Positions 9,366-41,637 of a stretch of 64,000 nucleotides of DNA are shown in pieces. Made by a program: the position numbers and the translations under genes. Each line of letters opens with the position of its first letter. Position 1 is the stretch's first letter. This DNA is from Fidelibacterota bacterium (lineage in GTDB: Bacteria > Fidelibacterota > Marinisomatia > Marinisomatales > JABMOV01): positions 9,898-73,897 of the forward strand of contig JABMOV010000139.1 of assembly GCA_013203145.1 (NCBI GenBank), given 5' to 3'. The notes under the pieces are model-generated. The model saw nothing but the letters and a program-made list of their open reading frames with translations, made no database searches and had not been told where the DNA came from.

Positions 9366-11016
<1,651 letters not shown>

Positions 11017-18321: not shown

Positions 18322-19293
18322 TTCATGAAAAAATTCATACAATTGCTCATTACCAAACCGTCGATCCTTGTAGGAGGTCAAGCGGTTATTGAAGGTGTTA
18401 TGATGCGTGTTCCCGGTGCTTACGCAACGGCGGTACGCACGCCCGAAGGTGATATCAAAGTAGATCGCCATGAGTTCAAATCAAAAGCAGAATCCTCAGC
18501 CATTTGGAAACGTCCGGTTTTGCGTGGAATGATAGGATTGTTTGAAGCCATGAAAATTGGATTTCAGACGTTGCAGTGGTCGGCAGAAATTGCCATGCCG
18601 GAAGAATCCAATGGAAAAGAAGGCGGTTCCAAGCTGGGTAATTTCTTATCGACGCTTTTTGCTGTCGTGCTTGCCATAACATTGTTTATGATTATTCCTT
18701 ACGCATTGACAACCTATGTTTTCCATCTCGAAAAGGAAGCGCTTTACTTTAATCTGGTGGCAGGCGGTTTACGAATTACATTTTTCATTTTGTATCTGGT
18801 AATTATTTCACTTTTAAGTGATGTGAAACGATTATTTATGAATCACGGCGCAGAACATAAGGTCGTGTACAATTTTGAATCCGGTAGAGAATTGTCAATC
18901 GATAATGCCCAATCTTTTCCCACACAACATCCACGGTGTGGCACCAGCTTTATGTTTATTGTCTTAATTATTGCTATTTTAGTTTTTGCTCTGGTGGATA
19001 CATTAGCCATCGCACTAATTGGTGAAATATCCATTCCCATTCGGCTGCTAATTCATTTACCATTGATACCGTTCGTAGCAGGTGTTTCCTATGAAGGAAT
19101 TAAAATCACCTCCCGCCACGGTGACAAATTAGTTTTCCGACTCATTAGAGCTCCCGGTTTGTGGCTTCAAAACATTACCACGAAGCAACCTGAAGACGAT
19201 ATGGTTGAAGTTGCTATTACTGCGCTCAAAGAAGCTTTTGGTGATAAGCTAAAAGAATTTGAAGGCAAAACCTTTCAGGCTGACGCTGTGTAA
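18319..19293 (+). CDS. DUF1385 (YqhQ-like) membrane protein
   Basis: Carries the signature [12 protein letters not shown] and HGAEHK, in the usual position between rpmE and prfA. The true start is probably the ATG at 18325 (MKKFIQLL). Confidence 0.85.
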
Positions 19294-20363
19294 TGGAAGA
19301 AAAACTCCAACAGATAATCGATCGCTACACGAAGCTGGGTGTAAAAATGTCAGACCCTGACGTTATTTCTGATCATAATCGGTTACGAGAAACGGGTCAG
19401 GAATACAGTCGTCTGGAGCCCATTGTACACTGTGCACAAAAATATCTGGATATCCACCAACAAATCCTTGATGACAAAGAAATTCTTAATAGTGATGATG
19501 CTGAATTAAAAGAATTAGTCCAAGAAGAGCTCCCGGAATTAGAAGAAAAAAAAGAAGCTCTTGTGGAAAGGCTAAAAGTTTTAATGCTGCCAAAAGATCC
19601 AACCGACGACAAGAATATAATCGTCGAAATTCGAGCTGGGACAGGTGGCGATGAAGCAGGATTATTTGCTGCAGATTTATTTCGTATGTATACCCGTTTT
19701 GCAGAACGCTCAAACTGGAAATTCGAAGTTATGGATTCCAATTCCACCGGAATGGGCGGAATGAAAGAAATTGTTTTTTCCATCCATGGTACTGGCGTTT
19801 ATGGATTAATGAAATTTGAAAGTGGCGTTCATCGTGTGCAGCGTGTACCAAAAACAGAAACCAGCGGTCGTGTACATACTTCAGCCGCTACTGTTGCTGT
19901 TTTACCTGAAGCTGAAGAAGCTGATGTACAGGTTAATACAGGTGATCTAAAAATTGATACGTATCGCGCCAGTGGTTCCGGCGGTCAGCACGTTAATAAA
20001 ACCGAATCAGCTATTCGCATCACACATTTACCAACGGGTTTAGTTGTGACATGCCAGGATGAATCATCTCAGCATAAAAATCGCGCCGCAGCAATGAAAG
20101 TTTTACGATCACGATTATTAGCACAGGAGCAGGAACGTTTAGCCTCTGAGCGATCTGAAGTGAGAAAACTGCAGGTGGGTACAGGTGATCGATCCGCCAA
20201 AATTAGAACATACAATTTTTCTCAGGGTCGTATCACAGACCACAGAATTGGTCTGACGATGTACAATTTAGAAGCAGCACTTGATGGTGATTTAGCAGAA
20301 ATCATTGAGAGAATTCGATTGGCTGACCAGCAAGAACGACTTGCGGCTGTTGGCGAACAGTAA
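19293..20363 (+). CDS. prfA: Peptide chain release factor 1
   Basis: 356 aa with the GGQ motif ([14 protein letters not shown]) and an RF1-type PxT-region sequence. Confidence 0.97.
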
Positions 20364-20393
20364 GGCTAGGGGCAAGATATAAGTTTTAAGGTT
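20364..20393. repeat. Island left-boundary motif (inverted copy of 31008-31028 and 32816-32857)
   Basis: Begins at the base after the prfA stop. The reverse complement reads AACCTTAAAACTTATATCTTGCCCCTAGCC. Confidence 0.65.
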
Positions 20394-20507
20394 CACATTT
20401 CAATTATACGGATACTTCTTCTAAAAATTATCTTTCTTATACCAAAAATTATACAAAACACATCTGTTCTTATATCTGAGTAGTGTTTTATTTTTTCAAT
20501 TTACTAT

Positions 20508-20837
20508 CTAATGTCCACTGAGCGGTGTCCCAAAAATGCCGACTGCTAGTTCTGCCCAAATGAGCAGGAGGACAACCAGAAGAGCTACACAGACAGCAAT
20601 TTGGTACTTGATATTTTTTATCTTCCTTATTACAAGCTCACACATTAGACCAGTGCCGAGCAATAGAGCTCCCGCGACAACAAAATCGAACAAATTCCAA
20701 TTTACTTCATCTGTGAACTGCCCCGCTATTAATGGTATGAGCAATAAAATTGCTGAAGTGACCACGATTATGATAAGTCTTTTATTCTGCATAATTATAA
20801 ATGTTCTTATAAGTCTTACATTTCTGGTAACGGCCAT
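20508..20837 (-). CDS. Small membrane protein, unknown function
   Basis: 109-aa ORF with 3 hydrophobic helices. The start may be the internal Met (MQNKRL). Confidence 0.4.
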   Translation of the reverse strand: MAVTRNVRLIRTFIIMQNKRLIIIVVTSAILLLIPLIAGQFTDEVNWNLFDFVVAGALLLGTGLMCELVIRKIKNIKYQIAVCVALLVVLLLIWAELAVGIFGTPLSGH

Positions 20838-20893
20838 GGCTAAGGCGCGTTTTTAATGCGTCTTTAGCTTCTGTTATATGCTGGCTTTATTTT

Positions 20894-21295
20894 TTAATCT
20901 TCATTTGGTGCTACTAATTCAACTTTTATTCGGTCAGGATCTTCAAAAAAGAGCGCATAGTAATCCTTGCCTCCAGCGAACGGGTACTTATCATCATATA
21001 AAAGTTTGATGTTTTTTTCCTTTAATTTTTGCGTTATATCGTCCACCATTGTACGAGATTCGGCATGAAAGGCTATATGGTTTAGTCCTGTCCTCTTTCT
21101 ATGATATCCCATGTCACGGTATTTTTCTTCTGTCTGAACAAAGACTAAATACGTATCGAACAGTTTATAACTTATCCCTTCCTTCCATTTCTGGTATATG
21201 TCATATCCCAATTCGCTTAAAAACCAGCTCCAAAACTCAGTAGTTCTTCCCAAATCACTAACATATATCTCAATATGGTGTACTGTTCCTTTCAT
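20894..21295 (-). CDS. VOC-family (glyoxalase/bleomycin-resistance/dioxygenase fold) protein
   Basis: 133 aa with N-terminal HHIEIYVSDL and a later NHIAFH metal-ligand pattern. Confidence 0.8.
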   Translation of the reverse strand: MKGTVHHIEIYVSDLGRTTEFWSWFLSELGYDIYQKWKEGISYKLFDTYLVFVQTEEKYRDMGYHRKRTGLNHIAFHAESRTMVDDITQKLKEKNIKLLYDDKYPFAGGKDYYALFFEDPDRIKVELVAPNED

Positions 21296-21307
21296 TTTTT
21301 TGCTTGC

Positions 21308-21491
21308 ACCTAACTTCTCGCTAAACGTAATTATTGGGTTTAGCGGGTTTACTATTTAATACACAGTTACGTTTAAACAGGAATAACACCAATAACCTCC
21401 ATTTATTATAAATCTCAAAAACCGTCCTTTATAAGACTTCACTAATTTAAATCAAATTCCCGTCTCATAACCACATTTAACCGTATCAAAA
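21308..21491. repeat. Junction repeat copy A (attC-like element)
   Basis: Aligns with 30730-30915 over ~185 nt at roughly 85-90% identity by eye. It contains the hairpin CGCTAAAC-11 nt-GTTTAGCG. On the minus strand it ends in GTTAGGT (21314-21308), 12 nt upstream of the VOC start. Confidence 0.6.
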
Positions 21492-21837
21492 CTCATCTCA
21501 AAAGGCCAAAAGTGTGCTTTAATAGGCAATGCTTGTGTCTGGTTTAGTCGTATATAAAGGGGCGGGACATATCAATAAATCCTAACTTAACATCTAGTCC
21601 ATTGATTAGGGGCAGGGCACAAATTTCTAAATGAAACTGTGATTTCAATTTTTCTTACGGTGATTTATTGAATAGGAGTGCTCATGATAGAGGTTTCTTT
21701 TATATCTTCGGGCGTCATTGTGGAACCTAGATTATGAAAATGCTCAGAATTGACAATGAAGCAAATTAAAATGAATGTATTTGTTGTGGCTAAAACAATT
21801 TTAAGAATAAAACGAAAATAAGGGATAACCTGCTATT

Positions 21838-23082
21838 ATGATTGAAATCATTCAAGACTGGCTTGTAAATCAAGGAATCAATAATGCATTATCTGTTGGT
21901 TTGGTAAGAAGTGTTTTATTCATTCTGGTAATCGTTCTTGGGTTTATTGCCAATGGTGTAACCAAACGTATTATCCTGTCAGGATTATCCACTATTATAG
22001 CCCGTACTGAATTTAAATGGGACGACACCTTTCTAAAATGGAACGTCCTTAATAAGCTCTCCCACATGGCTCCGGTCATTGTGATTTATATTGCATCTCC
22101 ACTGGTGCTCACGGGGTATGACCGGTTGATAGCCTTGATTACAAGCGCCCTTTTCATTTACATGATAATTATTGTTATTCTGGTCATTGATTCTGCTCTC
22201 AACGCTTTCCTTGATATTTACAAAACGTATGAGATTGCTAGGGAAATCCCAATCAAAGGTTTGGTTCAGGTTTTAAAGATAGCAGTCTATTTCATAGGTG
22301 GAATCTTTGTTTTGTCCATTATTCTTAACAAAACGCCCATTTATCTGCTGAGTGGTCTTGGTGCATTAACTGCTGTACTCATGTTAATTTTCAAAGATAC
22401 AATCTTGGGATTTGTAGCAGGGATTCAACTTACAGCTAATAAAATGGTAGCATATGGCGACTGGATTGAAATGCCCCAATATGGGGCCGATGGTGACGTT
22501 CTGGAAGTTGCATTAACAACGGTTAAAATACAAAACTGGGATAAAACTATAACGACAATTCCCACTTCAGCTTTAATCAACGAATCATTTAAAAATTGGC
22601 GTGGTATGAGCGAATCGGGTGGACGGCGGATAAAAAGGGCAATCTACCTTGATATAAGCAGTATCAGATTATGCACAGAGGAAATGCTGGAGAATTTTCT
22701 CAAAATTCAATATATCTCAGAATATATTGAGAAGCAGAAACGAGCGGTTGCTGAATACAATGTCACCAGTGGGATTGATGATTCAAGCCTTGTAAATGGA
22801 CGGAGACTTACTAATATCGGGACCTTTCGGGCCTATATTTTTGCCTATCTAAAAAACCATCCTATGATTAACCAGGATATGACTTTTCTTATCCGTCAGT
22901 TAGCGCCCACGAAAGATGGTTTGCCCATTGAGATTTATGTCTTCTGTAAGGACAAAGAATGGATTAACTATGAAAAGATCCAAGCCGACATTTTTGATCA
23001 TCTTCTGGCTATTGTTCCTGAATTTGGTTTAAAAGTTTTTCAAAATCCTACAGGAAGCGATTTTAATGAATTTACTAGATAG
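21838..23082 (+). CDS. MscS-family mechanosensitive channel
   Basis: 414 aa with N-terminal TMs and an MscS beta-domain (GDWIEMPQYGADGDVLEVALTTVKIQNWDKTITTIPTSAL). Confidence 0.85.
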   Translation: MIEIIQDWLVNQGINNALSVGLVRSVLFILVIVLGFIANGVTKRIILSGLSTIIARTEFKWDDTFLKWNVLNKLSHMAPVIVIYIASPLVLTGYDRLIALITSALFIYMIIIVILVIDSALNAFLDIYKTYEIAREIPIKGLVQVLKIAVYFIGGIFVLSIILNKTPIYLLSGLGALTAVLMLIFKDTILGFVAGIQLTANKMVAYGDWIEMPQYGADGDVLEVALTTVKIQNWDKTITTIPTSALINESFKNWRGMSESGGRRIKRAIYLDISSIRLCTEEMLENFLKIQYISEYIEKQKRAVAEYNVTSGIDDSSLVNGRRLTNIGTFRAYIFAYLKNHPMINQDMTFLIRQLAPTKDGLPIEIYVFCKDKEWINYEKIQADIFDHLLAIVPEFGLKVFQNPTGSDFNEFTR

Positions 23083-23098
23083 ACATCGCAATTTGTTT

Positions 23099-24496
23099 TT
23101 ATAGTACATGACTCTTGATTACCATCAGTTTTTCTCTCGTCATTTCGTGCATGGAATATTGAATTCCTCCCATACCAATTCCTGAAGTATCTCGTCCACC
23201 AAAAGGCATCCAATCAACACGGAAAGCAGTATGATCGTTCACCATAACAGCTGTTGCGTTAAGCTTTTTAACACATTCTAGAGCAACATCAATATTTTTT
23301 GTATAAACAGCAGCTTGAAAATGAACATCCAAACTATTGGCAATTTTAATGGCTTCATCACGATTTGAATAAGAATAGATACAAACTACCGGTCCAAAAA
23401 TTTCTAGAGTTGAGACCTTAGCATTTGCCGGTGGATTTAAAAGAACAGTTGGTTGATAACAGGTGTCAGAAATTCTTTTCCCGCCACACAATAATTTCGC
23501 CCCACCTTCTATGGCTTCATTTACCCACTTTTCAACTCTATCAACTTCCCTAGGAAAGATTAGCGGGCCCACTTCTGTTTTTTCATCCATTGGATCACCA
23601 ACTATTAAATTATTTGCCATTGCAGATAATTCATTGGCAACGTCATCACATATACTTTCATGAGCAAAAACGCGCTGGACAGACACACAAACTTGTCCGG
23701 CATGATAAAAACCACCTTTTGAAAGTGCCGGCATCATTTCTTTGAAATCGGCATCTTTTTCTACAATTACAGGAGCAGCTCCACCATGTTCTAGGGCGCA
23801 TCTTGTGCCGGGAGCTAATTTGGATTTCAAATACCAACCTACTTGCGGTGAACCGATGAAGGAAAAATAATTAACCCTCTTATCAGTAACCAAAAGCTCT
23901 CCCGCATCTCTATTGCAGATTACAACCTGGCACCAGCCATCAGGCAACCCTGCTTCCTTCAGGATATTTACTAAAGCCAAACAAGATAGGGGAGTAGCTA
24001 AAGCTGGTTTTATAATAACAGGGCATCCTGCTGCCACAGCGGTAACCACTTGGTGTACAATCAAATTAAGTGGATGATTAAATGCGCTGATAGATGTTAC
24101 TACGCCAATGGGTTCTCTTGTTGTAAAGGCAATTCTTCCTTCGGAAGCCTTGGTTAATCCCATTGGGATTTGTTCCCCCTTGAGTTGACCAATGTGTTCA
24201 GCGGCTATTTTTATTCCATTAATCGCTCTCAATACTTCCACTTTCGAATCGGTATAAGGTTTTCCGCCTTCTTGAGCTGCCGTATTGGTTAGCTCTTCAA
24301 TTCGCGTTTTCATTATTTCCGCGGTTTGTTCTAATATTGCGATTCGTTCATGTGCCGGAATCCACGTTGATTGGTCTAGAAAAAGGTTATATGCCTTTGT
24401 AAGTGCTTTATCTACTTCTTCTTTCCCAACTAATGGAATTTCCTTAATCAGCTTTAAATCATAGGGTGAGTTTACTTTTAACATTGGTTTTGTCAT
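23099..24496 (-). CDS. NAD(P)-dependent aldehyde dehydrogenase
   Basis: 465 aa with ALEHGG (the catalytic Glu region) and catalytic Cys context GQVCVSVQR. Confidence 0.88.
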   Translation of the reverse strand: MTKPMLKVNSPYDLKLIKEIPLVGKEEVDKALTKAYNLFLDQSTWIPAHERIAILEQTAEIMKTRIEELTNTAAQEGGKPYTDSKVEVLRAINGIKIAAEHIGQLKGEQIPMGLTKASEGRIAFTTREPIGVVTSISAFNHPLNLIVHQVVTAVAAGCPVIIKPALATPLSCLALVNILKEAGLPDGWCQVVICNRDAGELLVTDKRVNYFSFIGSPQVGWYLKSKLAPGTRCALEHGGAAPVIVEKDADFKEMMPALSKGGFYHAGQVCVSVQRVFAHESICDDVANELSAMANNLIVGDPMDEKTEVGPLIFPREVDRVEKWVNEAIEGGAKLLCGGKRISDTCYQPTVLLNPPANAKVSTLEIFGPVVCIYSYSNRDEAIKIANSLDVHFQAAVYTKNIDVALECVKKLNATAVMVNDHTAFRVDWMPFGGRDTSGIGMGGIQYSMHEMTREKLMVIKSHVL

Positions 24497-24518
24497 CTTA
24501 ATTCGTTCTCTCTTTATA

Positions 24519-26159
24519 TCAAAGGATACATGTTTTTTCTTTTAACAAAATATTCAATATTGAATGATTTAATGAATAATCTACTGCCAGATCAATTACA
24601 TGAACGCCATCTTTATGTAAACATTTTGTAAGAATTTTTCTAAAATCCTCATCACTTTTCGGTCTGTAACCCTTTGCACCATAGCTTTTTGCGTATTTAA
24701 CAAAATCTGGATTTTTGTAGTCCAACCCAAAGTTATCGAATCCCATTCCTTCTTGTTTCCATTTTATCATTCCATAGGCGCTATCATTCAAAATAATAAC
24801 AACTAAATTTAATCCTAATCGTACAGCCGTTTCTAATTCCTGAGAATTCATCATGAATCCACCATCACCACAAACAGAAATCACTTTTTTATCCGGATTA
24901 ATCAGTTTAGCTAATATTGCAGAAGGCAATCCTGCCCCCATTGTTGCCAAGGCATTATCTAATAATAACGTATTGTGCTGATAACATTTATAGTTTCTAG
25001 CAAACCAAATCTTATAAACACCATTATCCAAAGTAACAATACCATCATCAGTTAATTCTTCTCTGATAATGTGTACTAATCTTTGTGGTAGAATAGGAAA
25101 GCGGATATCTTTGGAGTATTTGCTCAGATGAAGTTCAACCTCATCTTTGACTCTTTGGAAATAGGACAAATCCCAGTTACCTGTTTCACGAATACTTGAA
25201 CCAATTAGTTCAATGGAAGTTGCGATATCGCCAATTACATTTAATTGAGGAAAATAAACTTCATCTACTTCGGCTGGGAAAAAGTTAATATGTATGACCT
25301 TTGTCCCTCCTTCTTCCATAAAAAATGGAGGTTTTTCAATTACATCATGTCCCACGTTTATTATTAAATCGGCTCTACTAATTGCGCAATGCAAAAAATC
25401 ATCTTTGGATAAAGCTGCTGTACCTAAAAATTTAGGGTGTCGTTCATCCACAACTCCTTTACCCATTTGTGTATCAAAAAAAGGAATTCCTGTTTTATCA
25501 ATAAATATAGATAAAGCTTTTTCTGTTCTTTTTCGGTTTGCACCAGCTCCAATTAACAATAAGGGCATTTTTGCCTGTTCAATCATTTTCACCGCATTCT
25601 GAATAGCTAATGTGTCTGCATCGGGTCTGCGATGTCCAACAACTTCAAATATTCTCTCGGTACATTCTTCAGCGGCAATGTCCTCTGGTAATTCTAAATG
25701 TACTGCTCCAGGTCTTTCTTCCATTGCTAAACGGAACGCCTCTCGAACCATTGAAGGGATATTATTTCCATTTACAATTTGTCGTGTGTATTTGGTTATT
25801 GGACGAAGTAGGTCAACTATATCAACAATCTGAAATCGACCTTGTTTTGATTTTTTAATCGGTTTTTGCCCGGTAATCATCATCATAGGCATTGCTCCCA
25901 ATTGCGCGTAGGCTGCCGGAGTAGTAAAGTTTGTAGCACCTGGCCCAAGCGTAGATAAACATACACCCGGTTTTCCCGTCAAACGACCATACGTAGCAGC
26001 CATGAAACCTGCTCCTTGTTCGTGTCGGGTAAGAACTAATTTAATTGTGGAGTGTCTAAGTGAATTCAAAAAATCAAGATTCTCTTCGCCTGGAATTCCA
26101 AAGATATATTCAACACCTTCGTTTTCGAGTGCTTTAATAAATAAATCTGATGCTTTCAT
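24519..26159 (-). CDS. ThDP-dependent acetolactate synthase-like enzyme (catabolic AlsS type)
   Basis: 546 aa with N-terminal GVEYIFGIPGEE and the ThDP-binding GDGGFMMNSQELET...N motif. Confidence 0.85.
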   Translation of the reverse strand: MKASDLFIKALENEGVEYIFGIPGEENLDFLNSLRHSTIKLVLTRHEQGAGFMAATYGRLTGKPGVCLSTLGPGATNFTTPAAYAQLGAMPMMMITGQKPIKKSKQGRFQIVDIVDLLRPITKYTRQIVNGNNIPSMVREAFRLAMEERPGAVHLELPEDIAAEECTERIFEVVGHRRPDADTLAIQNAVKMIEQAKMPLLLIGAGANRKRTEKALSIFIDKTGIPFFDTQMGKGVVDERHPKFLGTAALSKDDFLHCAISRADLIINVGHDVIEKPPFFMEEGGTKVIHINFFPAEVDEVYFPQLNVIGDIATSIELIGSSIRETGNWDLSYFQRVKDEVELHLSKYSKDIRFPILPQRLVHIIREELTDDGIVTLDNGVYKIWFARNYKCYQHNTLLLDNALATMGAGLPSAILAKLINPDKKVISVCGDGGFMMNSQELETAVRLGLNLVVIILNDSAYGMIKWKQEGMGFDNFGLDYKNPDFVKYAKSYGAKGYRPKSDEDFRKILTKCLHKDGVHVIDLAVDYSLNHSILNILLKEKTCIL

Positions 26160-26204
26160 ATTTCCCTTAAGTTTTTTTTAAAGTTAGCCTTTTATTGATT
26201 TAAT

Positions 26205-26305
26205 ACCCAACGTCCTTAATAACTGCAATTATTGGGTACTCTTTAATGCAAAGTTGCGTTTTAACCGGAACAACACATAGCCTTTGTTAGCGTTTCGTTG
26301 TTGTC
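26205..26305. repeat. Junction repeat copy D (short attC-like element)
   Basis: Shares AATTATTGGGTA...AATGCAAAGTTGCGTTTTAACCGGAACAACAC with copies A-C. On the minus strand it ends in GTTGGGT (26211-26205) upstream of the ALS gene and starts with ACAACAACGAAACGCTAAC just after the 195-aa ORF stop. Confidence 0.5.
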
Positions 26306-26317
26306 TTTCTCTTAAAT

Positions 26318-26905
26318 TCATTTTTTGATATTGTCCTTGTTTGGTGATACTAAAGGAATAACTTTTCTTACGATAAATATTATTCCAGTTCTAACATATA
26401 GATAAAGTACAACTCCTATTAAAGCTAATATACTACCCACTCCTGTGGGAAGAACTACACCAAATGTAAATGTCATGCCAATGACAAATCCTAAGAAACA
26501 TTCTGCTCGATAAATTGGAAAGAACAGAGCCAATAGAAAAAGTCCATACATCATATAGCCTGAAAGATTTGAATAACCAAGAGTGAAAAACACCGAAAGT
26601 AGTACTCCAAATGATAAAGCAAAGAGAAACCTGTAAGTAGATTTCATTGGAAAATTTAATGAGTTTGACTTATTACCATTGTTACTAATTAGTCGTTTTT
26701 GTATGCGAAAAGTTAGAAACAATGTAAGTAAAGGAAGTAAGAGACCTCCCCACCAATTAGAAATTTTAGGCAAGTCCTCCTGTTGTAGTATATGGTGGCT
26801 TGGTACACCACCATGGTAATGAGTCCATATTAATAGTGACCATATGCCAATTGCTACTATTCCCGTAAAATATAGACTTCTTTTTAAAAACGTTTTTTCA
26901 GTCAT
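26318..26905 (-). CDS. Polytopic membrane protein, unknown function (single-gene cassette)
   Basis: 195 aa, about 5-6 TM, with no recognisable motif. Confidence 0.5.
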   Translation of the reverse strand: MTEKTFLKRSLYFTGIVAIGIWSLLIWTHYHGGVPSHHILQQEDLPKISNWWGGLLLPLLTLFLTFRIQKRLISNNGNKSNSLNFPMKSTYRFLFALSFGVLLSVFFTLGYSNLSGYMMYGLFLLALFFPIYRAECFLGFVIGMTFTFGVVLPTGVGSILALIGVVLYLYVRTGIIFIVRKVIPLVSPNKDNIKK

Positions 26906-27008
26906 AATAATTTGATTTTAAGCGGTACGTTGTTTTTTCTTTCGTTGTTGTCTGCTGCCCAATTTTTATTTTGCTTGTTACAAACCGTTATTTTTCATCT
27001 AAAGCATT
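26906..27008. repeat. Junction spacer F (degenerate attC-like element)
   Basis: The minus strand reads AAATAACGG...AATTGGGCAG...GACAACAACGAAAG. It shares the ATAACG/ATTGGG half with copy C and the ACAACGAAA box with copies D and E. No clear GTT end is present. Confidence 0.3.
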
Positions 27009-27458
27009 TTACTTTTTGTATAAAGTTCTTACCTGTGGCAGTAAGGCAATAATAATAATGGCAATAGCAAAAAACATATAAAATGTATGTAACCAATGTA
27101 CGGCATGAAGAAACACCATTTGGATCTGTATCCAACTAATGAGTGTAAAAGCAATATAAATACTGTAAGTCCACGACCAGTGCATATCTTTAAATAAATT
27201 GATTTGCTCGGCTAGCTTGGATTCTGTTTTTTTTAGTAACGCAATTATCAGCAACAGGGGAATAAGCCCAAGAACTGAGAATAAAATAACCCCAGGTATA
27301 AAAAAACTACTAAAAGGAGATTTTTCTAACATAGATAAAGGCATTCCAATCAACTCTCCTGTAGGAGAAATTATCAATGCTCCACCTCCTCCAATTGCTC
27401 CCAATCCGAGGAATCCTAATAAAATCAAAAAGATATTTCGCGTTGTTTTTATTTTCAT
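27009..27458 (-). CDS. Four-TM membrane protein, unknown function (single-gene cassette)
   Basis: 149 aa with the Gly-rich first helix GLGAIGGGGALI. Confidence 0.5.
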   Translation of the reverse strand: MKIKTTRNIFLILLGFLGLGAIGGGGALIISPTGELIGMPLSMLEKSPFSSFFIPGVILFSVLGLIPLLLIIALLKKTESKLAEQINLFKDMHWSWTYSIYIAFTLISWIQIQMVFLHAVHWLHTFYMFFAIAIIIIALLPQVRTLYKK

Positions 27459-27503
27459 AACCTTTTCTTCGTTTTTTGGAATTGTCTCATGTGTTTAAAT
27501 GGT

Positions 27504-27713
27504 TTATAACGTCCCGCTAAACGTAATTATTGGGCTTATCGGGCAATACACAGTTATGTTTTAACCGGAAGAAGACCCACATACCTCCATTTATTATACA
27601 TATAATAAACCGTCCTCTTCATATATCTCAAAAATACGTCTTAAAACTCTAAGTCTCAATATGTTGAGATATGAGACACCCGTCCCATAATCAAAATCGA
27701 TTAGACGTTATGC
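27504..27713. repeat. Junction repeat copy C (best attC-like fold)
   Basis: The ends pair: ATAACGTC (27506-27513) with GACGTTAT (27704-27711). An inner pair, AATTATTGGG (27525-27534) with CCCATAAT (27684-27691), has one bulged T. The first ~100 nt are homologous to copies A and B. It contains module 2 (27625-27677). Confidence 0.6.
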
Positions 27714-27720
27714 TGTAGTT

Positions 27721-27966
27721 CTAAAGATCCTTTTTCATCTGATCAAATTCCAATTTGGTAATTTCACCTTTAGCATATCGCTTCTTGAGAATATCCAAAG
27801 CTGTTTCCGATTCTGTGCTATCGCGATGATTCCGGTCTGAATCACCCATCCATGGTGGTCTAAAGCCTCCGCGCCTTGACATTAGGAAAAAGAAAACCAT
27901 CATCGCTAGACACATTATAACGGGGAACATCCACCATCCACCCGACCACATATGTTCATTTCCCAT
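27721..27966 (-). CDS. SHOCT-domain small membrane protein
   Basis: 81 aa with an N-terminal TM and a C-terminal SHOCT motif (LDILKKRYAKGEITKLEFDQMKKDL). Confidence 0.75.
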   Translation of the reverse strand: MGNEHMWSGGWWMFPVIMCLAMMVFFFLMSRRGGFRPPWMGDSDRNHRDSTESETALDILKKRYAKGEITKLEFDQMKKDL

Positions 27967-28037
27967 TTGTATTACTCCTTCATTTTATCCAGTCAGATAT
28001 TACTGATGTGAATAAAATTTGTTAAGTATGGTGTTGT

Positions 28038-28302
28038 GCTTAACGTACTCAATAAATGGTGTTTTGTAAAGAATTAATCCGTTTCATCATCCCTCACCCA
28101 TTGATTGGATCACATTTTGTCCCACAAACCATCCTTTTTAAAACATCTCAAAACTACGTCTTAAAACTTTAATTCTCAATATGTTGAGATATGAGACTCT
28201 CGGGAGCTGTAATAGGCTAAAGTGACGAATAATTCGTGAAAAAATGACATACGAGGCAGTGAAAGGTTTATGGTTTGCTAACGTTTGTTGGCGTTTCGTT
28301 GT
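28038..28302. repeat. Junction repeat copy E (attC-like element downstream of Thoeris)
   Basis: Module 2 at 28145-28197 matches 27625-27677 at 50/53 nt. The minus strand begins ACAACGAAACGCCAAC directly after the thsB stop and ends GTTAAGC (28044-28038). Confidence 0.55.
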
Positions 28303-28872
28303 TTATCCTACCCAATCAGCAAAATTGTTATAACCATCATTATCAATCCAATCATAAACCGAATATAATGATGATAATCTAAAGATTTTATTTCTTTTGA
28401 ATTCTTCAACTTCCTTAACCGTCCAACCATCTAAATCTGTATATTTTGTCCACTTTCCTTGAATGAAATTATGGAGACTTAGTTTCCCCCCTGTTTTGTC
28501 AAAGGAGTATCCTAAATAATAAAATGGATTATTTCCTTTATTTTTAGTTTTACCATCTTTGCCTTTTATGCTATTAATGTGTATTCCCAATAAATCATTG
28601 CCCTTTTCTAGGCTTTTCATTATTTCATAATCAACCCACCTGCGGTTAAATGTATCAGAACCTATAAGTACACAAGTAACAGAAGTATTTTTAAGTTCTC
28701 CATTAATAAGTCTTTTCAGCGCTAAAGCACTAGTTTTCTCTGCTGTTTCCCAAATTGAAGCATCAAAATACCCAGCACTCTTGTCCTTTGTTAATTTATG
28801 CTTTCTTACAACATTTGCTCTAAATTCAATTACATCTTTGTAATGAAAACTAAAAAATACTCGTTTAGCCAT
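28303..28872 (-). CDS. thsB: Thoeris ThsB, TIR-like (DUF1863-type) protein
   Basis: 189 aa with the N-terminal VFFSFHYKDV strand typical of TIR-like DUF1863. Its start lies 1 nt after the thsA stop. Confidence 0.8.
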   Translation of the reverse strand: MAKRVFFSFHYKDVIEFRANVVRKHKLTKDKSAGYFDASIWETAEKTSALALKRLINGELKNTSVTCVLIGSDTFNRRWVDYEIMKSLEKGNDLLGIHINSIKGKDGKTKNKGNNPFYYLGYSFDKTGGKLSLHNFIQGKWTKYTDLDGWTVKEVEEFKRNKIFRLSSLYSVYDWIDNDGYNNFADWVG

Positions 28873-28873
28873 T

Positions 28874-30310
28874 TTAAATATGATTTTGCAATAGGTTGAT
28901 TGCTTTAATTAAATTATTGATAATGGTTGATTCGTCAATATTATCTTGACCTAATGATATTATGGTGTCTTTCAACACCGGATTGTCAGGGTAGTATTCT
29001 TCATATTTATCAATAACCTTTTTCCATAATTCTTTAGATGCATAGCCAGTACATCCTATTGGTATTACTTTTAGTCCCAATTCCACTGCAATTTCAAATT
29101 CTTTTATTAATCCATCGGACAAGACAACTTTATTTTCAACTAATTTGTTTCCAAAAAAGAATATAGCAATACCAGCTTCTCCAAGCATTATGTGTCTATA
29201 ATGATTCCATGATTTTTCCCGTTCTACTGGGTCAGTAATATTCTGAGGAAAAGGTCTTAATATTAGATAATCATCTAATTGCCCTTTTTGGTTGTTGTAA
29301 ACATTTGTAAGAGTTCCATTTATCACAGAACTTCCAATGCCAAGACCAAAACCAGAGATTATCTTATAATTCTTCTCAGCTAACTTGGATGAAAAATTGA
29401 AAATCAAATTTTCAGCACCAAATTTCCCTAAATAGCCGTATTCATGTGCAGCACCTGAAATAAAAATATTTCGTCTACGCAGTTTTGTTTGAATTAATAG
29501 AAGAACTTCGGTAATCTCATTATAATCATCTATCATTAAAGCTTGAATCCCGTATCTTTTCAAATCCTTTATACGGTGTTCCTGCTTAATTTTATCATAC
29601 AGGTATTCATCACATATTTTATAGCTGTCCTCTGAAATTGTTTTGAAAAAACAATAATGGTCAGGAGTATGATTACCAAGAAGAATTCTAATTCGACTTA
29701 ATATATATTCAAGATTTGGGTCTTCAAAACTGAAACCAATAAACAAAAATGTTTTTGATACTAAATCACCTTGTAACGCAGTCGTAAATAACTGACGCTT
29801 TTCATTATAGTTTTCATAATCGTCTTTTGTCAAAACAGCATCATGACTCAGAGTGATATCACCATGCATTTTATAGATTACAGCTTCTCTACGAGGTTTA
29901 CTTATTGCTAAATTTTCAGTACATCTTTTGACATCAGTAATTTTACCAAACTTTTCTATAGTTTTTTCAATTAAATCATCATAATTGGTTGTCCAGTAAG
30001 TTTTAATAGGTAAGGAAGCCAGAATCTGATGATTTATGCTTTCTTTTACATCCTTTGTGAATTGCTCAATTAACTGGTCATTAATACTTCCTCTGCTTCC
30101 CTTCTCATTCTCATAGTATTGAGCAACTGCAATTAAGTCTGTTTCCTTATCGACATTGAGGTTTAATTCCTCTGCCATTTCTCGAAGCAATTCCTTCCAA
30201 TTAACCAACCCAGATGAAACTGACATACCAGCTCCAGCGAATATCGCTGCGTTTTCTGCATTAATTGATTTGATATATTTGTCAACGAATTGTGTTAGTT
30301 GTCTTTTCAT
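28874..30310 (-). CDS. thsA: Thoeris ThsA, SIR2 NADase domain plus C-terminal SLOG sensor domain
   Basis: 478 aa. SIR2_2-type motifs are present (AAIFAGAGMS, WTTNYDDLIE, YKMHGD). The C-terminal half is SLOG-like and Gly-rich (FISGAAHEYG, ISGFGLGIGSSVING). Confidence 0.88.
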   Translation of the reverse strand: MKRQLTQFVDKYIKSINAENAAIFAGAGMSVSSGLVNWKELLREMAEELNLNVDKETDLIAVAQYYENEKGSRGSINDQLIEQFTKDVKESINHQILASLPIKTYWTTNYDDLIEKTIEKFGKITDVKRCTENLAISKPRREAVIYKMHGDITLSHDAVLTKDDYENYNEKRQLFTTALQGDLVSKTFLFIGFSFEDPNLEYILSRIRILLGNHTPDHYCFFKTISEDSYKICDEYLYDKIKQEHRIKDLKRYGIQALMIDDYNEITEVLLLIQTKLRRRNIFISGAAHEYGYLGKFGAENLIFNFSSKLAEKNYKIISGFGLGIGSSVINGTLTNVYNNQKGQLDDYLILRPFPQNITDPVEREKSWNHYRHIMLGEAGIAIFFFGNKLVENKVVLSDGLIKEFEIAVELGLKVIPIGCTGYASKELWKKVIDKYEEYYPDNPVLKDTIISLGQDNIDESTIINNLIKAINLLQNHI

Positions 30311-30320
30311 TTTATCTTAT

Positions 30321-30692
30321 TTATGACAGCACAGTTTTTAAATTATCCCATGTCCAGTCGTACAACGCTCCAGCATTTTCAACTCTTGTTGGGTTTGTTC
30401 CCTGTGGTTTTATTTGAACTGTTTTTATATAATTATTTCTAGCCATTTTAACTTCCTTCTTGACACCACTAGCTCTATAAGTGGATGTGCCAGCTATTAC
30501 AACCACAATATCAGACCTTTTTATTTTAGCAAGAGCTTTATCCTCCCAGTCTTTTTCTGGTACAGCTTCTTTTAAAGACCAATCCGAAATTTCAAATGGT
30601 GAATCGGGTAATTTTGCTTGTCCAGCAAGTAAGTTTTTCAGACTTAAATCATTATCAAAATCAAAGCTTATAAATACTCTTTTTTTACTCAT
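30321..30692 (-). CDS. thsB: Second, divergent Thoeris ThsB-like TIR-like protein
   Basis: 123 aa with RVFISFDFDND...DIVVVIAG...GVKKEV, the pattern of short TIR-like/DUF1863 proteins. It lies 10 nt upstream of thsA. Confidence 0.7.
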   Translation of the reverse strand: MSKKRVFISFDFDNDLSLKNLLAGQAKLPDSPFEISDWSLKEAVPEKDWEDKALAKIKRSDIVVVIAGTSTYRASGVKKEVKMARNNYIKTVQIKPQGTNPTRVENAGALYDWTWDNLKTVLS

Positions 30693-30729
30693 AATATTTC
30701 AATTTAGGTGCATGTGTCTTTACAATGAA

Positions 30730-30915
30730 CGCCAACTTTCCGCTAAACGTAAATTATTAGGTTTAGCGGGTTTATTCTTTAATACAAAGTTACGTTTTAA
30801 CCGGAATAACACCCATATACCTCCATTTATTATAAATTTCAAAAACCATCCCTTTTAAGACTTTACCAATTTAAATCAAAAACTCGTCTCATAACCACAT
30901 TTAACTGTATCAAAA
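30730..30915. repeat. Junction repeat copy B (attC-like element upstream of Thoeris)
   Basis: See copy A. On the minus strand it ends in GTTGGCG (30736-30730), 37 nt upstream of the thsB' start. Confidence 0.6.
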
Positions 30916-31007
30916 TCAATGTCTCAAAATGCAAATATAAGTTTTGAGAAATATTAAAAAAAGAGATGAAAGAAAGATTAACCTCCGGCATCCCATATCA
31001 CTTCATT

Positions 31008-31028
31008 CTTAAAACTTAATATCCTGCC
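31008..31028. repeat. Internal copy of the island-boundary motif
   Basis: CTTAAAACTTAATATCCTGCC matches the reverse complement of 20371-20390 (CTTAAAACTTATATCTTGCC) and 32819-32850. Confidence 0.55.
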
Positions 31029-31091
31029 ACTTGATGAGCCGTTAGCAACAAACTTTTTCGAAATTTCATCAAAATAGTTATTGTATTACAT

Positions 31092-31109
31092 TTACTGCCA
31101 TAGCAGTAA
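31092..31109. promoter_or_regulatory. Putative HipB operator 1
   Basis: TTACTGC-CATA-GCAGTAA, with perfect 7-bp arms. Confidence 0.55.
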
Positions 31110-31162
31110 TACAAAGCAAACAATTCTATTTGTCTATCAAATCTATCTTTTGCGATCAATTA

Positions 31163-31180
31163 ATACCGCCATAGCGGTAA
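31163..31180. promoter_or_regulatory. Putative HipB operator 2
   Basis: ATACCGC-CATA-GCGGTAA, with 6-bp perfect arms, 71 bp from operator 1. Confidence 0.55.
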
Positions 31181-31235
31181 TTATTTCATGTTTTAATATA
31201 AAGAACTTGTTTTTAAAATTAATATCAATCTATAT

Positions 31236-31253
31236 TTACCGCCATGTCAGTAA
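31236..31253. promoter_or_regulatory. Putative HipB operator 3 (overlaps the hipB start codon)
   Basis: TTACCGC-CATG-TCAGTAA, an imperfect copy of the same 18-mer, 73 bp from operator 2. The ATG at 31244 lies in its spacer. Confidence 0.5.
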
Positions 31254-31486
31254 AGAATGAGTTACACAACGTGATTTTATATCACAGAAAAAAAGCAAAA
31301 TTAGGTCGAAATGAGTTGGCAGAATTAGCAGGTGTTGGTAAAACAGTAATATACGATTTAGAAAAAGGTAAAAAGACTGTTAAGTGGTCAACAATAATGA
31401 CAATTCTTGAAGCGTTGAATATTGAGATAACGTTTCAAAGCCCATTAATGGAAGAATATGAGAAAAGCAAGAATAAGAACCCATAA
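31244..31486 (+). CDS. hipB: XRE-family HTH protein, HipB of a tripartite HipBST module
   Basis: 80 aa with the HTH LGRNELAELAGVGKTVIYDLEKGKKTV. Confidence 0.8.
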   Translation: MSVKNELHNVILYHRKKAKLGRNELAELAGVGKTVIYDLEKGKKTVKWSTIMTILEALNIEITFQSPLMEEYEKSKNKNP

Positions 31487-31778
31487 TACTAAAGCCGGGA
31501 TTCTAACCGAGTATAGTAAAACACATTATGTTTTTCAATATGATATTGGTTATGAAGGTCCTCCCATATCTCTTACAATGCCGGTACGAGATAATCCTTA
31601 TGAATTTGACTCTTTCCCGCCCTTTTTTGATGGCTTACTCCCTGAAGGAATACAATTAGAAGGTTTGCTGAAATATAATAAGATAGATAAATCGGATTAC
31701 TTCAAACAATTATTGGCAACGGGGCAGGATTTAGTAGGAGCGGTTACTGTAGAAGAAATCGACACCTTTGATGAATAG
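31458..31778 (+). CDS. hipS: HipS: stand-alone HipA N-terminal-subdomain protein
   Basis: 106 aa matching the HipA N-terminal domain pattern (AGILTE...YVFQYD..., PPFFDGLLPEG). It overlaps hipB by 29 nt and hipT by 11 nt. Confidence 0.78.
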   Translation: MRKARIRTHNTKAGILTEYSKTHYVFQYDIGYEGPPISLTMPVRDNPYEFDSFPPFFDGLLPEGIQLEGLLKYNKIDKSDYFKQLLATGQDLVGAVTVEEIDTFDE

Positions 31779-32697
31779 ATGCCCAATTACATATGAACCA
31801 TGCAAAGGCAAATACAGTAAAACCGGTCTGGCAAAGTTATCGCCTCGCTTAACAGAGTTAGTCGATTTACCATTTACTGCACAAGAGCAAAGACGTGAAG
31901 CGGCCTCAAGAGCAACAAAAACGTCTATCCAGGGAGTTCAGCCTAAACTAAGCGCAAGGCTCTCTGTGAAAAGTTCATCATTGGAAATAGTCGATATTAA
32001 AGGAACGTTTATCCTTAAGCCACAAAGTGACATTTTTAGAGAGGTTCCAGAGAACGAGGATGTTACTATGAAGATGGCTAAAATCCTTGGGATTGATGTT
32101 CCCTTAACCGGGTTAGTTTTCTCAAAGGATGGAAGCTTAAGCTATTTCATAAAGCGATTTGACAGGTACGGTACTAATAAGAAAAAACATTTAGAAGATT
32201 TTGCTCAGTTGACAAATAATACGAGAGAAACAAAATACAATTGGTCTATGGAAAAATTAATTCCCGTAATTGATTCTAATTGTACTTTCCCATTAATTGA
32301 AAAGAGAAAATTGTTCAGAAGGATGCTTTTTTGCTTTCTTATTGGAAACGAGGATATGCATTTAAAGAATTTTAGTTTAATAATGCACGACAATATAATA
32401 GAACTCAGCCCGGCATATGACCTGCTTAACTCTACGATTTCAATGGAAAGGGCAACAGAAGAATTTGCTTTACCACTTGCAGGGAAAAAAAGAAAGATAA
32501 CAAGGAAAGACCTAGTAACATATTTTGGAATGGATTGGTTACGGTTAACAGGAAAAACAATAGAATCTGAAATCCAAAATATAAAAGACAAAAAATCAGA
32601 CCTGGAGAGCTTAATACATATTTCTTTCCTAACTAAAGAAATGAAAGAAAAGTATCTTGAATTAATGTCAAATAGATATGAAAGATTAATGGAATAA
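31768..32697 (+). CDS. hipT: HipT: HipA-family Ser/Thr kinase toxin lacking the N-terminal subdomain
   Basis: 309 aa with the Gly-rich/P-loop TSIQGVQPKLS and catalytic loop GNEDMHLKNFSL, followed by SPAYDLLNS. Confidence 0.85.
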   Translation: MMNRCPITYEPCKGKYSKTGLAKLSPRLTELVDLPFTAQEQRREAASRATKTSIQGVQPKLSARLSVKSSSLEIVDIKGTFILKPQSDIFREVPENEDVTMKMAKILGIDVPLTGLVFSKDGSLSYFIKRFDRYGTNKKKHLEDFAQLTNNTRETKYNWSMEKLIPVIDSNCTFPLIEKRKLFRRMLFCFLIGNEDMHLKNFSLIMHDNIIELSPAYDLLNSTISMERATEEFALPLAGKKRKITRKDLVTYFGMDWLRLTGKTIESEIQNIKDKKSDLESLIHISFLTKEMKEKYLELMSNRYERLME

Positions 32698-32815
32698 AGT
32701 CAGCAGCTTATAGTGTATAAACGAAAGGCGTGGTGAATCATTAATAACTCCCTGCGCAATTAATTTCTTTTAATTCATTCCTCGATAACATCTACCCCTT
32801 TTATCTTTTATAGTA

Positions 32816-32857
32816 AACCTTAAAACTTCAGCCTTCAATTACTATCTTCCCCTAAAT
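32816..32857. repeat. Island right-boundary motif
   Basis: AACCTTAAAACTT-(14-nt insert)-TATCTTCCCCTAAAT, directly upstream of prmC. It is an inverted match to 20364-20393 and a direct match to 31008-31028. Confidence 0.6.
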
Positions 32858-33745
32858 TTGGTGCATTCTATGAGCACTGAACCGAAAACCTGGCGAATTA
32901 TTGATATGCTGAAATGGGCGGAATCCTATTTTGGCGAACATGGTTTTCCCCATCCGCGTCGCGATATTGAAGTTTTGTTACAGGATTTACTACACTGCTC
33001 CCGTGTTGATTTATACTTACGCTTTGATGAGCCGTTGGATCGGCAACAATTAGACAAACTGCGATCATGGATAAAGCGCAGAACAAAAAAAGAGCCCATT
33101 CAATATATTACCGGGAAAACAGAGTTCTATGGACTGGAAATGGAAGTCAACGATTCTGTATTAATTCCGCGCCCCGAGACTGAACGGCTTGTGGATGTTG
33201 CCATTCATACGCTGGGGCAGAATGGATCTTCAAAAATTTTGGATATAGGAACAGGTTCTGGTTGTATTGCCATCGCACTGGCTCATGAAATGCCACAGGC
33301 GCATATTACAGCGGTTGATATTCATGATGCTGCTCTGGATTTGGCGAATACAAATAGCAAACGCCATAACGTGAACAATATTGAGTTTAGACAAATGGAT
33401 TTTCTTAAAGAAATTCCAGGTGGAAATTTTGATATGATTGTATGTAATCCACCCTATGTGCCGGAAATTGAGATGGAGTCGCTCATGCCCGATGTTAGAG
33501 ATTATGAGCCCCGCACTGCTCTCACAGATGGCATAGATGGTTTAACATTCTACCATCGCCTGGCCCAAACAGGTCCTGACATGTTGAAACATCGCGGTTG
33601 GATGATTATGGAAGTCGGTTTAGAAGACCATCCTGAAAACGCCAAGGCAATTTTTCAGAATTATCCCTATGGTTCATTGGAGCTCATATCAGATTATAAC
33701 GGGGATCCGCGAGTATTAAAGGTGCGACTTACGCAAGATGAATAA
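32858..33745 (+). CDS. prmC: Release-factor glutamine N5-methyltransferase PrmC/HemK
   Basis: Carries the SAM motif DIGTGSGCIAIA and catalytic NPPY (VCNPPYV). The track start is a TTG. The ATG at 32870 (MSTEPKTW) is the likelier start. Confidence 0.92.
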   Translation: MVHSMSTEPKTWRIIDMLKWAESYFGEHGFPHPRRDIEVLLQDLLHCSRVDLYLRFDEPLDRQQLDKLRSWIKRRTKKEPIQYITGKTEFYGLEMEVNDSVLIPRPETERLVDVAIHTLGQNGSSKILDIGTGSGCIAIALAHEMPQAHITAVDIHDAALDLANTNSKRHNVNNIEFRQMDFLKEIPGGNFDMIVCNPPYVPEIEMESLMPDVRDYEPRTALTDGIDGLTFYHRLAQTGPDMLKHRGWMIMEVGLEDHPENAKAIFQNYPYGSLELISDYNGDPRVLKVRLTQDE

Positions 33746-41502: not shown

Positions 41503-41570
41503 AAATGTCGGGAGAGTCAGTATTGTCCGTAATTCTCATTTGTCTTCGGGAATGAATATCCTCCTCAATA

Positions 41571-41600
41571 GGTTGGGGCGATTCATGAATCGCCCGTACG
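41571..41600. repeat. REP-like palindrome copy 2 (intergenic, inverted relative to copy 1)
   Basis: ggttgGGGCGATTCATGAATCGCCCgtacg equals the reverse complement of 37148-37177, 30/30 nt. Confidence 0.85.
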
Positions 41601-41637
41601 TAAATATGAATTATATTTCATAATAAAATGCAATGCG

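Follow-up and report, generated by a model that had tools for sequence, protein, structure and literature searches.

A probable integron-derived cassette array, with a Thoeris defence cassette and no integrase in view, in a Marinimicrobia/Fidelibacterota genome

The 64,000-nucleotide stretch analysed here (the window, positions 9,898 to 73,897 of contig JABMOV010000139.1) belongs to a metagenome-assembled genome of the Marinimicrobia/Fidelibacterota and carries, between prfA and prmC, an accessory island of small gene units separated by related junction repeats. We consider it reasonably likely that this island is an integron-derived cassette array without an integrase, similar to a cluster of attC sites lacking integron integrase (CALIN), that its junction repeats are degenerate or chimeric derivatives of attC, and that the array is now sedentary. 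On the sequence of their ends, four units are gene cassettes: the Thoeris system, a SHOCT gene, a gene for a 149-aa membrane protein and, in a sister strain, an LCM-family methyltransferase unit. The glyoxalase unit is probably another, while cassette status is doubtful for a segment encoding a thiamine pyrophosphate (TPP) enzyme, an aldehyde dehydrogenase (ALDH) and an MscS channel. The island and its units are as follows.

20358-32847: accessory island between prfA (19293-20363, plus strand) and prmC (32858-33745, plus strand); synteny breaks at 20357 and 32848
28287-30735, minus strand: Thoeris cassette, with TIR (30321-30692), ThsA SIR2-STALD (28874-30310) and ThsB (28303-28872), assigned by Pfam
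27714-28037, minus strand: SHOCT cassette, open reading frame (ORF) 27721-27966; opens TTAAGC, with GCATAAC after; Pfam SHOCT, complementarity 6/7
26906-27503, minus strand: 149-aa membrane-protein cassette, ORF 27009-27458; opens GTTATAAACC; inverse core box (R'') GGTTTGTAAC at 26977-26986
21838-26204, both strands: TPP-ALDH-MscS segment, with TPP enzyme (24519-26159, minus), aldehyde dehydrogenase (23099-24496, minus) and MscS channel (21838-23082, plus), assigned by Pfam
20894-21307, minus strand: glyoxalase unit, ORF 20894-21295, assigned by Pfam
20508-20831, minus strand: 109-aa unit, opens G|TTACCAGAAATGTAAGACTTAT, followed by a 94/109-aa membrane ORF

The boundaries of the Thoeris unit were mapped by comparison with its closest homologues (86-88% ThsA identity), which occur in three unrelated metagenomic contexts: L032, L034/L035 and L036/L037. 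A blastn comparison of L032 with the window covers exactly 30736-28285, at 84% identity. The homology opens at the G of GTTGGCGTTC (G|TTGGCG) and closes about 10 nt past AACGCCAAC, the R'' box that follows ThsB in this cassette, which itself opens TT GGCGTT; upstream of GTT the DNA is unrelated across all four contexts, the window included. The two ends covary, reading GTTGGCGTT/AACGCCAAC in the window and L032 and GTTAGCGTT/AACGCTAAC in L034 and L036. At the level of sequence, this cross-genome comparison proves the G|TT cassette boundaries of the Thoeris unit; the cassette came from a pool on which Bacteroidota-type arrays also draw.

The arrays in which these homologues lie (L032 5518-20600, L034 4432-17400 and L036 3139-13900) are textbook examples of such arrays, with intervening elements mostly of 137-141 nt, and the start of each unit is the reverse complement (9-10/10) of the sequence just past its last ORF. 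Their units include UvrD, two GmrSD, an OLD-family ATPase with a UvrD helicase, which from its domains we read as a Gabija-like pair, and a methylase with an HNH protein. Directly upstream of the array, and on the same strand, L032 and L034 encode a recombinase of the Xer/IntI clade. These two proteins score 213 and 206 bits with NF040815 (cut-off 220) and 202 and 196 bits with the TIGR02249 'integron integrase' model (cut-off 265); their best PDB matches are, in order, XerA (5hxy), a XerC-like recombinase (4a8e) and IntI4 (2a3v), and their relatives are mostly Flavobacteriaceae proteins with the NCBI name 'site-specific tyrosine recombinase/integron integrase'. In a further locus, L033 (1916-4333), ThsB is truncated to 108 aa by an IS21-type insertion (rve/Mu-transposase C and IstB), and three attC-model matches of 68-84 bits lie further along that contig.

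Complementary ends are also found among the window's own units and those of the sister strain (FLOH01000018.1, 94-98% identical; about 28 kb of its 749-kb contig was compared, making two strains in all). The first 12 nt of each unit were scored against the 70 nt past its own last ORF and past the last ORFs of the other units. Cognate scores were 9, 7, 10, 5, 8, 6 and 11 of 12, the non-cognate scores averaged 6.0 with a maximum of 8, and the observed sum was reached in 5 of 5040 permutations. Unit start and inverse core agree at 9/9 positions for Thoeris, 12/13 for the LCM unit, 9/10 for the 149-aa gene (whose R'' is GGTTTGTAAC in the window and GTTACCAACC in the sister strain) and 6/7 for SHOCT. 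The cassette logic is thus stronger than in the original prediction, which had matched the 149-aa unit to AAATAAC rather than to the box at 26977-26986. The glyoxalase start, GTTAGGTGCAAG, agrees with the post-ORF sequence CCAGCATATAAC at 8/12 positions, equal to the best non-cognate score. One and the same cassette 5' end (TTAYCAGAAATGTAAGACTTAT, from the minus-strand hydrolase (bla) cassette) is joined at G|TT behind element G, described below, in the window and behind a different attC in the sister strain. Units that start at the TT of G|TT and carry the inverse box after their last ORF bear the trace that an IntI-type tyrosine recombinase leaves when it recombines circular cassettes on a folded single strand. 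An unrestricted scan for GTT-10mers and their complements proved too noisy and was discarded.

A covariance model of this attC class (R1) was built from 11 attCs of L032, L034 and L036, whose RNAalifold consensus has a long L stem, an R stem and short spacers that stay unpaired; compensatory changes back 17 of its 20 pairs. On attCs outside the training set R1 scores 84, 80, 68, 48 and 43 bits, with three weaker sites at 20-24 bits. The element that follows the LCM methyltransferase gene of the sister strain scores 64.1 bits (E 1.5e-11); the lineage therefore carries at least one bona fide attC of the R1 class. With the cross-genome boundaries of Thoeris, the cognate-specific ends and this sister-strain site, the predicted integron-type cassette array with no integrase in view is borne out.

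A repeat search of the window recovered four copies of the junction repeat (A to D), all on the minus strand, which is the coding strand of their neighbours, all in the island, and each followed after 13-46 nt by the first start codon of a unit. They are listed here with the other junction elements.

30730-30927, minus strand: repeat copy D, ends ...GCGGAAAG|TTGGCG, at the junction upstream of the Thoeris cassette; nhmmer match 30731-30927
28038-28302, minus strand: junction element E, after ThsB; holds a module-2 copy (28138-28202) and ends GAGTACG|TTAAGC
27504-27713, minus strand: repeat copy C, at the junction after SHOCT; holds a module-2 copy (27618-27682)
26205-26316, minus strand: repeat copy B, a chimera by its sequence, after a 195-aa ORF (26318-26905); ends GGACG|TTGGGT
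21308-21507, minus strand: repeat copy A, ends GCGAGAAG|TTAGGT, upstream of the glyoxalase unit; 5.1 bits with the attC model
20822-20883, minus strand: hairpin element G, after glyoxalase; ATATAAC-AGAA-GCTAAAG..CTTAGC-CATGGCC-G|TTACCAG

The family lies where the original prediction had placed it and exceeds chance: the degenerate 26-mer TTCCNGTTNAAACNNAACTNTGNATT has exactly four matches, all on the minus strand (21358-21383, 26245-26270, 27545-27570 and 30781-30806), and none in 100 shuffles. Copies A and D, judged 85-90% similar by eye, are identical at 162 of 186 positions (87%), and the 50/53 identity claimed for module 2 (27625-27677 against 28145-28197) is exact. The heptamers GTTAGGT, GTTGGGT, GTTAAGC, GTTGGCG and GTTATAA also stand at the positions given, three of the five junctions ending in an exact GTTRRRY and the other two fitting it at 5/7. 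Homology between copies stops at ..(A/C)G|TT in every copy, and the G|TT of D is the Thoeris junction itself. The copies of the proposed ~185-nt repeat are thus real, but the whole does not behave as one attC, and only its last ~70 nt ('m4') are common to all.

In the sequences searched, the repeat is confined to the island and its counterpart in the sister strain. With an nhmmer profile made of the four window copies and four from the sister strain, neither the window nor some 190 kb of related loci yielded a further copy, and a pattern scan of the 749-kb sister-strain contig gave two exact matches, both in its island. Besides the sister strain, pattern scans of genome, metagenome and viral collections returned chance matches in coding DNA only (L001-L004, L006 and L007), with none in viral contigs; blastn of copy D against plasmids likewise gave chance matches only. 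Rfam, searched at gathering thresholds over the whole window and at E-value thresholds over the island, gave nothing relevant to the repeats. Metagenome assemblies of the window strain break at them. As predicted, then, the repeat is tied to junctions of gene units rather than scattered like a plain miniature inverted-repeat transposable element (MITE) or repetitive extragenic palindrome (REP).

Several junctions retain recognisable pieces of attC. The 5' ~26 nt of copy B (26277-26301) are 100% identical to the canonical attC 5' end (R'' and the start of L'') in L034-L037 and the remainder is the shared repeat core, which makes B, on sequence, a chimera in which a canonical attC 5' end is fused to the repeat module. 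Element E contains a collapsed attC remnant (28273-28297, CGCCAAC-AAA-CG|TTAGC) that scores 12.8 bits (E 0.17) with the model interior deleted. Its positions 28265-28282 (GTTAGCAAACCATAAACC) are a duplicate of the 5' end of the 149-aa cassette; since they resemble 27493-27510, the start of that cassette, Thoeris may once have stood directly upstream of the 149-aa gene. Element G has an attC-like layout, is absent from the sister strain and scores 11.7 bits (E 0.3), below threshold. Element F, downstream of the 149-aa gene, carries a degenerate R' (ACGTAC).

The original prediction had gone further and taken the repeats for a divergent class of attC, each ending in a hairpin, and had described in copy C the layout of R box, spacer and L box with an extrahelical base. 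Copies A and D have the hairpin (CGCTAAAC-N11-GTTTAGCG), C an imperfect form of it and B none. The box layout was indeed found in copy C, the only copy that pairs end to end, but not in A, B or D. In C, ATAACGTC at 27704-27713 pairs with GACGTTAT at 27506-27513, forming an 8-bp R stem (R'' GCATAACGTC, R' GACGTTAT) with 10-nt spacers and a 10-bp inner stem (TGATTATGGG/CCCAATAATTA) with one bulged base. Copies A, D and those of the sister strain have TTTTGAG in place of C's distal AAC box. The shared 3' core holds an internal ACRYAAC-TKT-GTATTAAAG, resembling the R''-N3-L'' with which sites of the canonical class open, and then a perfect hairpin, unrelated to theirs, 3 nt from GTT; in A and D the internal box is ACGTAAC, 19 nt from that hairpin, the gap between hairpin and GTT is 3 nt, and the hairpin has no extrahelical bases. 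None of the four copies combines R''/R' and L''/L' stems with unpaired spacers of ~5 nt and extrahelical bases. Whole junction elements measure 100-265 nt and the shared core from ACRYAAC to GTTRRRY 66-75 nt, compared with 57-141 nt expected of an attC and 124-205 nt, mostly 137-141 nt, in the comparison arrays.

Folded as single-stranded DNA, the 3' core of D has z-scores of -3.1 on the coding strand and -5.0 on its complement, and that of A -1.5 and -2.0; the corresponding bottom- and top-strand energies are -16.3 vs -13.0 kcal/mol for D and -8.5 vs -7.6 kcal/mol for A. Element G gives, as a circular form, -10.6 kcal/mol on the bottom strand and -6.7 on the top. The folding proposed as a check supports the attC comparison in part: the complement of the coding strand folds better in five of six elements (D, A, G, the LCM attC and an L032 attC), but the exception, the core of C, is no more stable than shuffles. 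The other proposed check, an attC covariance search, which we ran with R1, gave no significant match in the window. With class-model scores of at most 7.5 bits, end-to-end pairing in C alone, no distal AAC box in A and D, a chimeric B and strain differences that lie off G|TT, the idea of a divergent attC class is not borne out in the form proposed. The repeats keep the positions and the crossover end of attC but, as tested, are attC-derived or degenerate and not members of the attC family. Two other interpretations were rejected: that the whole 185-nt repeat is an ORF-less cassette starting at an internal GTTAAAT (the complement was not found, 6/12 being background, and the 5' homology boundary is not at GTT), and that a leader peptide is read from a conserved GGAGG..ATG, for which the reading frame differs between copies.

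Among the checks proposed was whether cassette content varies between strains while the repeats stay conserved; in the two strains compared it does, but the visible mechanism is homologous or microhomology-mediated recombination and not exchange at G|TT. The sister strain lacks SHOCT and Thoeris and has in their place a single hybrid repeat, which resembles A/D in its 5' half and in its 3' half is the orthologue of C (95% identical, 4 differences in 88 nt); this fits deletion by recombination inside repeats. It has an extra 4 kb (repeat copy A'', the LCM unit with its attC and two beta-lactamase-family genes) where the window has ~30-70 nt, and the breakpoints lie outside G|TT. It also lacks 100 nt that include element G, and the flanks of this difference carry AATAAA(A)G microhomology. 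The hybrid repeat, the breakpoints of the 4-kb segment and the AATAAA(A)G flanks rule out simple excision or insertion at G|TT as the source of these differences, which, being bounded by repeats but not by G|TT, point to homologous recombination. In the extra segment (L022 13549-17145) the two beta-lactamase-family (serine hydrolase) genes are convergent, and the LCM-family methyltransferase has an N-terminal membrane segment. Of the minus-strand hydrolase gene the window retains the first ~40 nt, which form the leader of its 109-aa ORF (20793-20833).

From these observations a history of the array may be proposed. The junction repeat of ~100-210 nt would be a lineage-specific module that has taken the place of attC between cassettes. 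Its last ~70 nt appear to keep an attC-like order (ACRYAAC, the L''-like remnant GTATTAAAG, the hairpin CGCTAAAC/GTTTAGCG and (A/C)G|TT) at non-canonical spacing; because this order is kept, the spacing is non-canonical and the distal box has been lost in most copies, they are best read as degenerate or chimeric attC derivatives. The repeats may have been retained for an outward promoter (TTAYAA-N18-TATAAT) and leader serving the downstream cassette, a role that is plausible because an array without an integrase has no Pc promoter. All six full-length copies have TATAAT unchanged and, 18 nt before it, TTAYAA. The array itself would now be sedentary, the differences between the two strains having arisen by homologous or microhomology-mediated recombination between repeat copies and not by excision at G|TT.

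Several results weigh against an integron-derived array. No Phage_integrase match was found among the scanned ORFs of the window or of the ~28 kb of sister-strain sequence, and tblastn with the array-adjacent recombinases of L032 and L034 found no match in the window. A complete integron would have an intI with an IntI-specific domain, attI and Pc beside the array; this one is flanked by prfA and prmC. R1 gives no match in the window at default filters and, with filters off, reaches at best the 12.8 bits of the post-ThsB remnant and the 11.7 bits of element G (E 0.17-0.3); copies A, B and D do not exceed 7.5 bits (D, E 2.5). Two units show no cognate complementarity: the 109-aa unit and the TPP-ALDH-MscS segment, which opens TTGGGT, scores 5/12 (background) and has no cognate R''. 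The three strain-level indels all have their boundaries away from G|TT, and there is therefore no direct evidence of integrase activity in the lineage. The proposed promoter, finally, is drawn from one consensus match and the conservation of TATAAT, and is not significant by itself in a region with 40 promoter-like sites where 48.8 are expected.

Three other explanations were considered. The repeats could be functional attC sites, a divergent 'VCR-like' resident class used by an unseen Marinimicrobia integron integrase elsewhere in the genome; the array would then belong to an active sedentary integron or have left one recently. The end of homology at G|TT in all copies, which in D is exactly where Thoeris joins, would suit such sites, as would the R (8 bp) and L (10 bp, one bulge) stems of copy C with their symmetric 10-nt spacers, the strongly structured core of D, more so on the bottom strand (z -5.0), and inter-copy similarity like that of sedentary-integron attCs. 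Between the ACRYAAC box and the terminal GTTRRRY, moreover, 4-6 of 7 positions pair, and one change is compensatory (T-A to C-G in B). However, the class model stays at or below 7.5 bits on the repeats, the distal AAC box of C is missing from A, D and the sister-strain copies, and the spacing between R and L (19 vs 3 nt in the short fold, 10/10 nt in C) departs from the 3-7 nt of 15 collected attCs. The hairpin of A and D lacks extrahelical bases, B has no hairpin, the strain indels cross over within the repeat and not at G|TT, and no integrase was found in the window or the ~28 kb of the sister strain. We regard this explanation as unlikely. Rather improbable, in our view, is that the repeat is primarily a promoter and 5'-leader module that drives promoterless cassettes; homologous recombination would have copied it from junction to junction, and its contact with G|TT would come from the attC remnant to which it fused. 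The distance of 13-46 nt to the first start codons, the invariant TATAAT with its TTAYAA 18 nt upstream and the location of A and D in divergent intergenic regions agree with this, and a CALIN without Pc would need internal promoters. Against it, promoter-like matches are not enriched (40 against 48.8 expected), Marinimicrobia may use another promoter type, B stands before a two-gene operon although it has no TATAAT part, the leader matches no RNA family, and a promoter role alone leaves the end of homology exactly at G|TT unexplained.

That the repeat is instead a non-autonomous mobile element inserted into attC sites (MITE/PATE-like, or the relic of an IS1111-attC or group IIC-attC element) seems to us very improbable. 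Copy B does resemble a canonical attC interrupted by the repeat after 26 nt, the copies have subterminal hairpins, and REP-like palindromes occur in the window, as does a fragment of a Y1 (IS200-like) transposase. Past the repeat, however, no 3' half of the interrupted attC was found, and no terminal inverted repeats or target-site duplications were seen. The copies have ragged 5' ends that are not alike, the REP family near the Y1 gene shows no resemblance to them, and no group II intron or other Rfam match was obtained. All four window copies lie in the island, at gene-unit boundaries and not dispersed away from them, and the genome and metagenome scans confine the repeat to one species. A conjecture of a different kind, to which we likewise assign a low probability, is that the ~185-nt module is a new kind of attC, long and promoter-bearing, on which a Xer/IntI-like recombinase of Marinimicrobia, so far unseen, would act, and that the recombinases of the L032/L034 type, upstream of and co-oriented with uniform arrays of 138-nt attCs and multi-gene defence cassettes, represent an under-recognised integron lineage of the Fibrobacteres-Chlorobi-Bacteroidetes (FCB) group, one that exchanges Thoeris and other cassettes between phyla. 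We return to the reading of the island as a decayed, integron-derived array in comparing it with known systems.

The inverted-integrase integrons of Spirochaetes, Chlorobi and other groups have an integrase co-oriented with the cassettes. The arrays of L032 and L034, which carry the same Thoeris cassette behind a co-stranded Xer/IntI-clade recombinase, resemble them, but the two recombinases fall below the curated integron-integrase cut-offs and the window has none. The attC families of sedentary integrons, such as the Vibrio cholerae repeats (VCRs), are conserved from R'' to R', fold end to end and measure ~120 nt. As in those families, the junctions of this one genome are 78-90% alike, end at the crossover and break assemblies; unlike VCRs, they have only the 3' part in common, with mosaic 5' parts, lengths of 100-210 nt and no R'' in most copies.

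A CALIN, a term introduced with IntegronFinder (PMC4889954; PMC9024848), is read in the literature as a degraded integron. The island shares with CALINs its co-oriented small accessory gene units, bounded at G|TT and with an inverse box after the ORF, and the absence of an integrase nearby. The definition, however, requires at least two attC matches by the IntegronFinder model and no intI within 4 kb, whereas here, scored with R1, the window has no significant match and the sister strain one, and most junctions hold a lineage-specific repeat and not a recognisable attC. The homogenised junction module of the island is unusual. Anti-phage systems carried as cassettes are known as BRiCs, and homologues of these occur in defence islands with non-recombinogenic pseudo-attC sites (bioRxiv 10.1101/2024.07.02.601719). 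Here, too, an integron cassette carries a defence system; the difference is that a complete type I Thoeris (TIR, ThsA SIR2-STALD and ThsB; 2.45 kb) forms one cassette, found in four contexts and at least two phyla.

The original prediction had also stressed a context outside the Proteobacteria. The host is indeed a Marinimicrobia/Fidelibacterota bacterium, and its PrmC is 100% identical to a protein that NCBI assigns to a Candidatus Marinimicrobia MAG. Within the FCB group, however, Chlorobi, Ignavibacteriae and Salinibacter have earlier been found to carry integrons and CALINs (PMC9024848), and the context is for that reason only moderately novel. Our literature search found no paper joining integron, Marinimicrobia and attC, and no paper that mentions the first two has a title on integrons in the phylum. 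If the favoured reading holds, integron-type cassettes are placed in a phylum new for such arrays. The comparison shows a complete three-gene Thoeris system that moves between unrelated genomes as one cassette with base-exact boundaries, which extends the finding that integrons stockpile anti-phage systems. The island would also illustrate how an array decays after loss of its integrase: attCs collapse, turn chimeric or yield to a homogenised junction module, and homologous recombination takes over the gain and loss of cassettes. Arrays of this kind escape finders that rely on attC models, and cognate end-complementarity together with cross-genome boundary mapping can recover them.

The island measures 12.5 kb and has a GC content of 0.35, against 0.39 in the remaining window. 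In a related species (L014, 81% PrmC identity) prfA and prmC are adjacent, with a 243-nt spacer and no island between, and among the loci compared the island and its repeats are absent from relatives at 63-81% PrmC identity. Read on the minus strand, the order is hipBA (opposite strand), D, TIR-ThsA-ThsB, element E, SHOCT, C, the 149-aa gene, element F, the 195-aa gene, B, TPP enzyme and aldehyde dehydrogenase, MscS (opposite strand), A, glyoxalase, element G and the 109-aa ORF. The prmC-proximal end is occupied by one further feature.

31244-32697, plus strand: hipB / hipA-N / hipA-C toxin-antitoxin module, opposite in orientation to the cassettes; assigned by Pfam

Three palindromes of 16-18 nt (TTACYGCCATRKCRGTAA, TACCGCCATAGCGGTA) precede hipB (31092-31109, 31164-31179 and 31236-31253) and are probably HipB operator sites.

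Elsewhere in the window, a 322-aa ORF (15878-16846, plus strand) between rho and an aminotransferase gene has Cas6b_N and Cas6b_C Pfam matches and is kept in the sister strain and L014; neither a CRISPR array nor a further cas gene is in view around it. The IS200-like Y1 transposase fragment (36870-37391; the Pfam match comprises residues 109-168 only) is accompanied by REP-like palindromes (GGGGCGATTCATGAATCGCCC) at 37144-37183, 41567-41606 and 42447-42486, which are unrelated in sequence to the junction repeats. The NUDIX and Y1 ORFs are absent from L014. A 65-nt stretch near 37150-37210 is 97% identical to 41536-41600.

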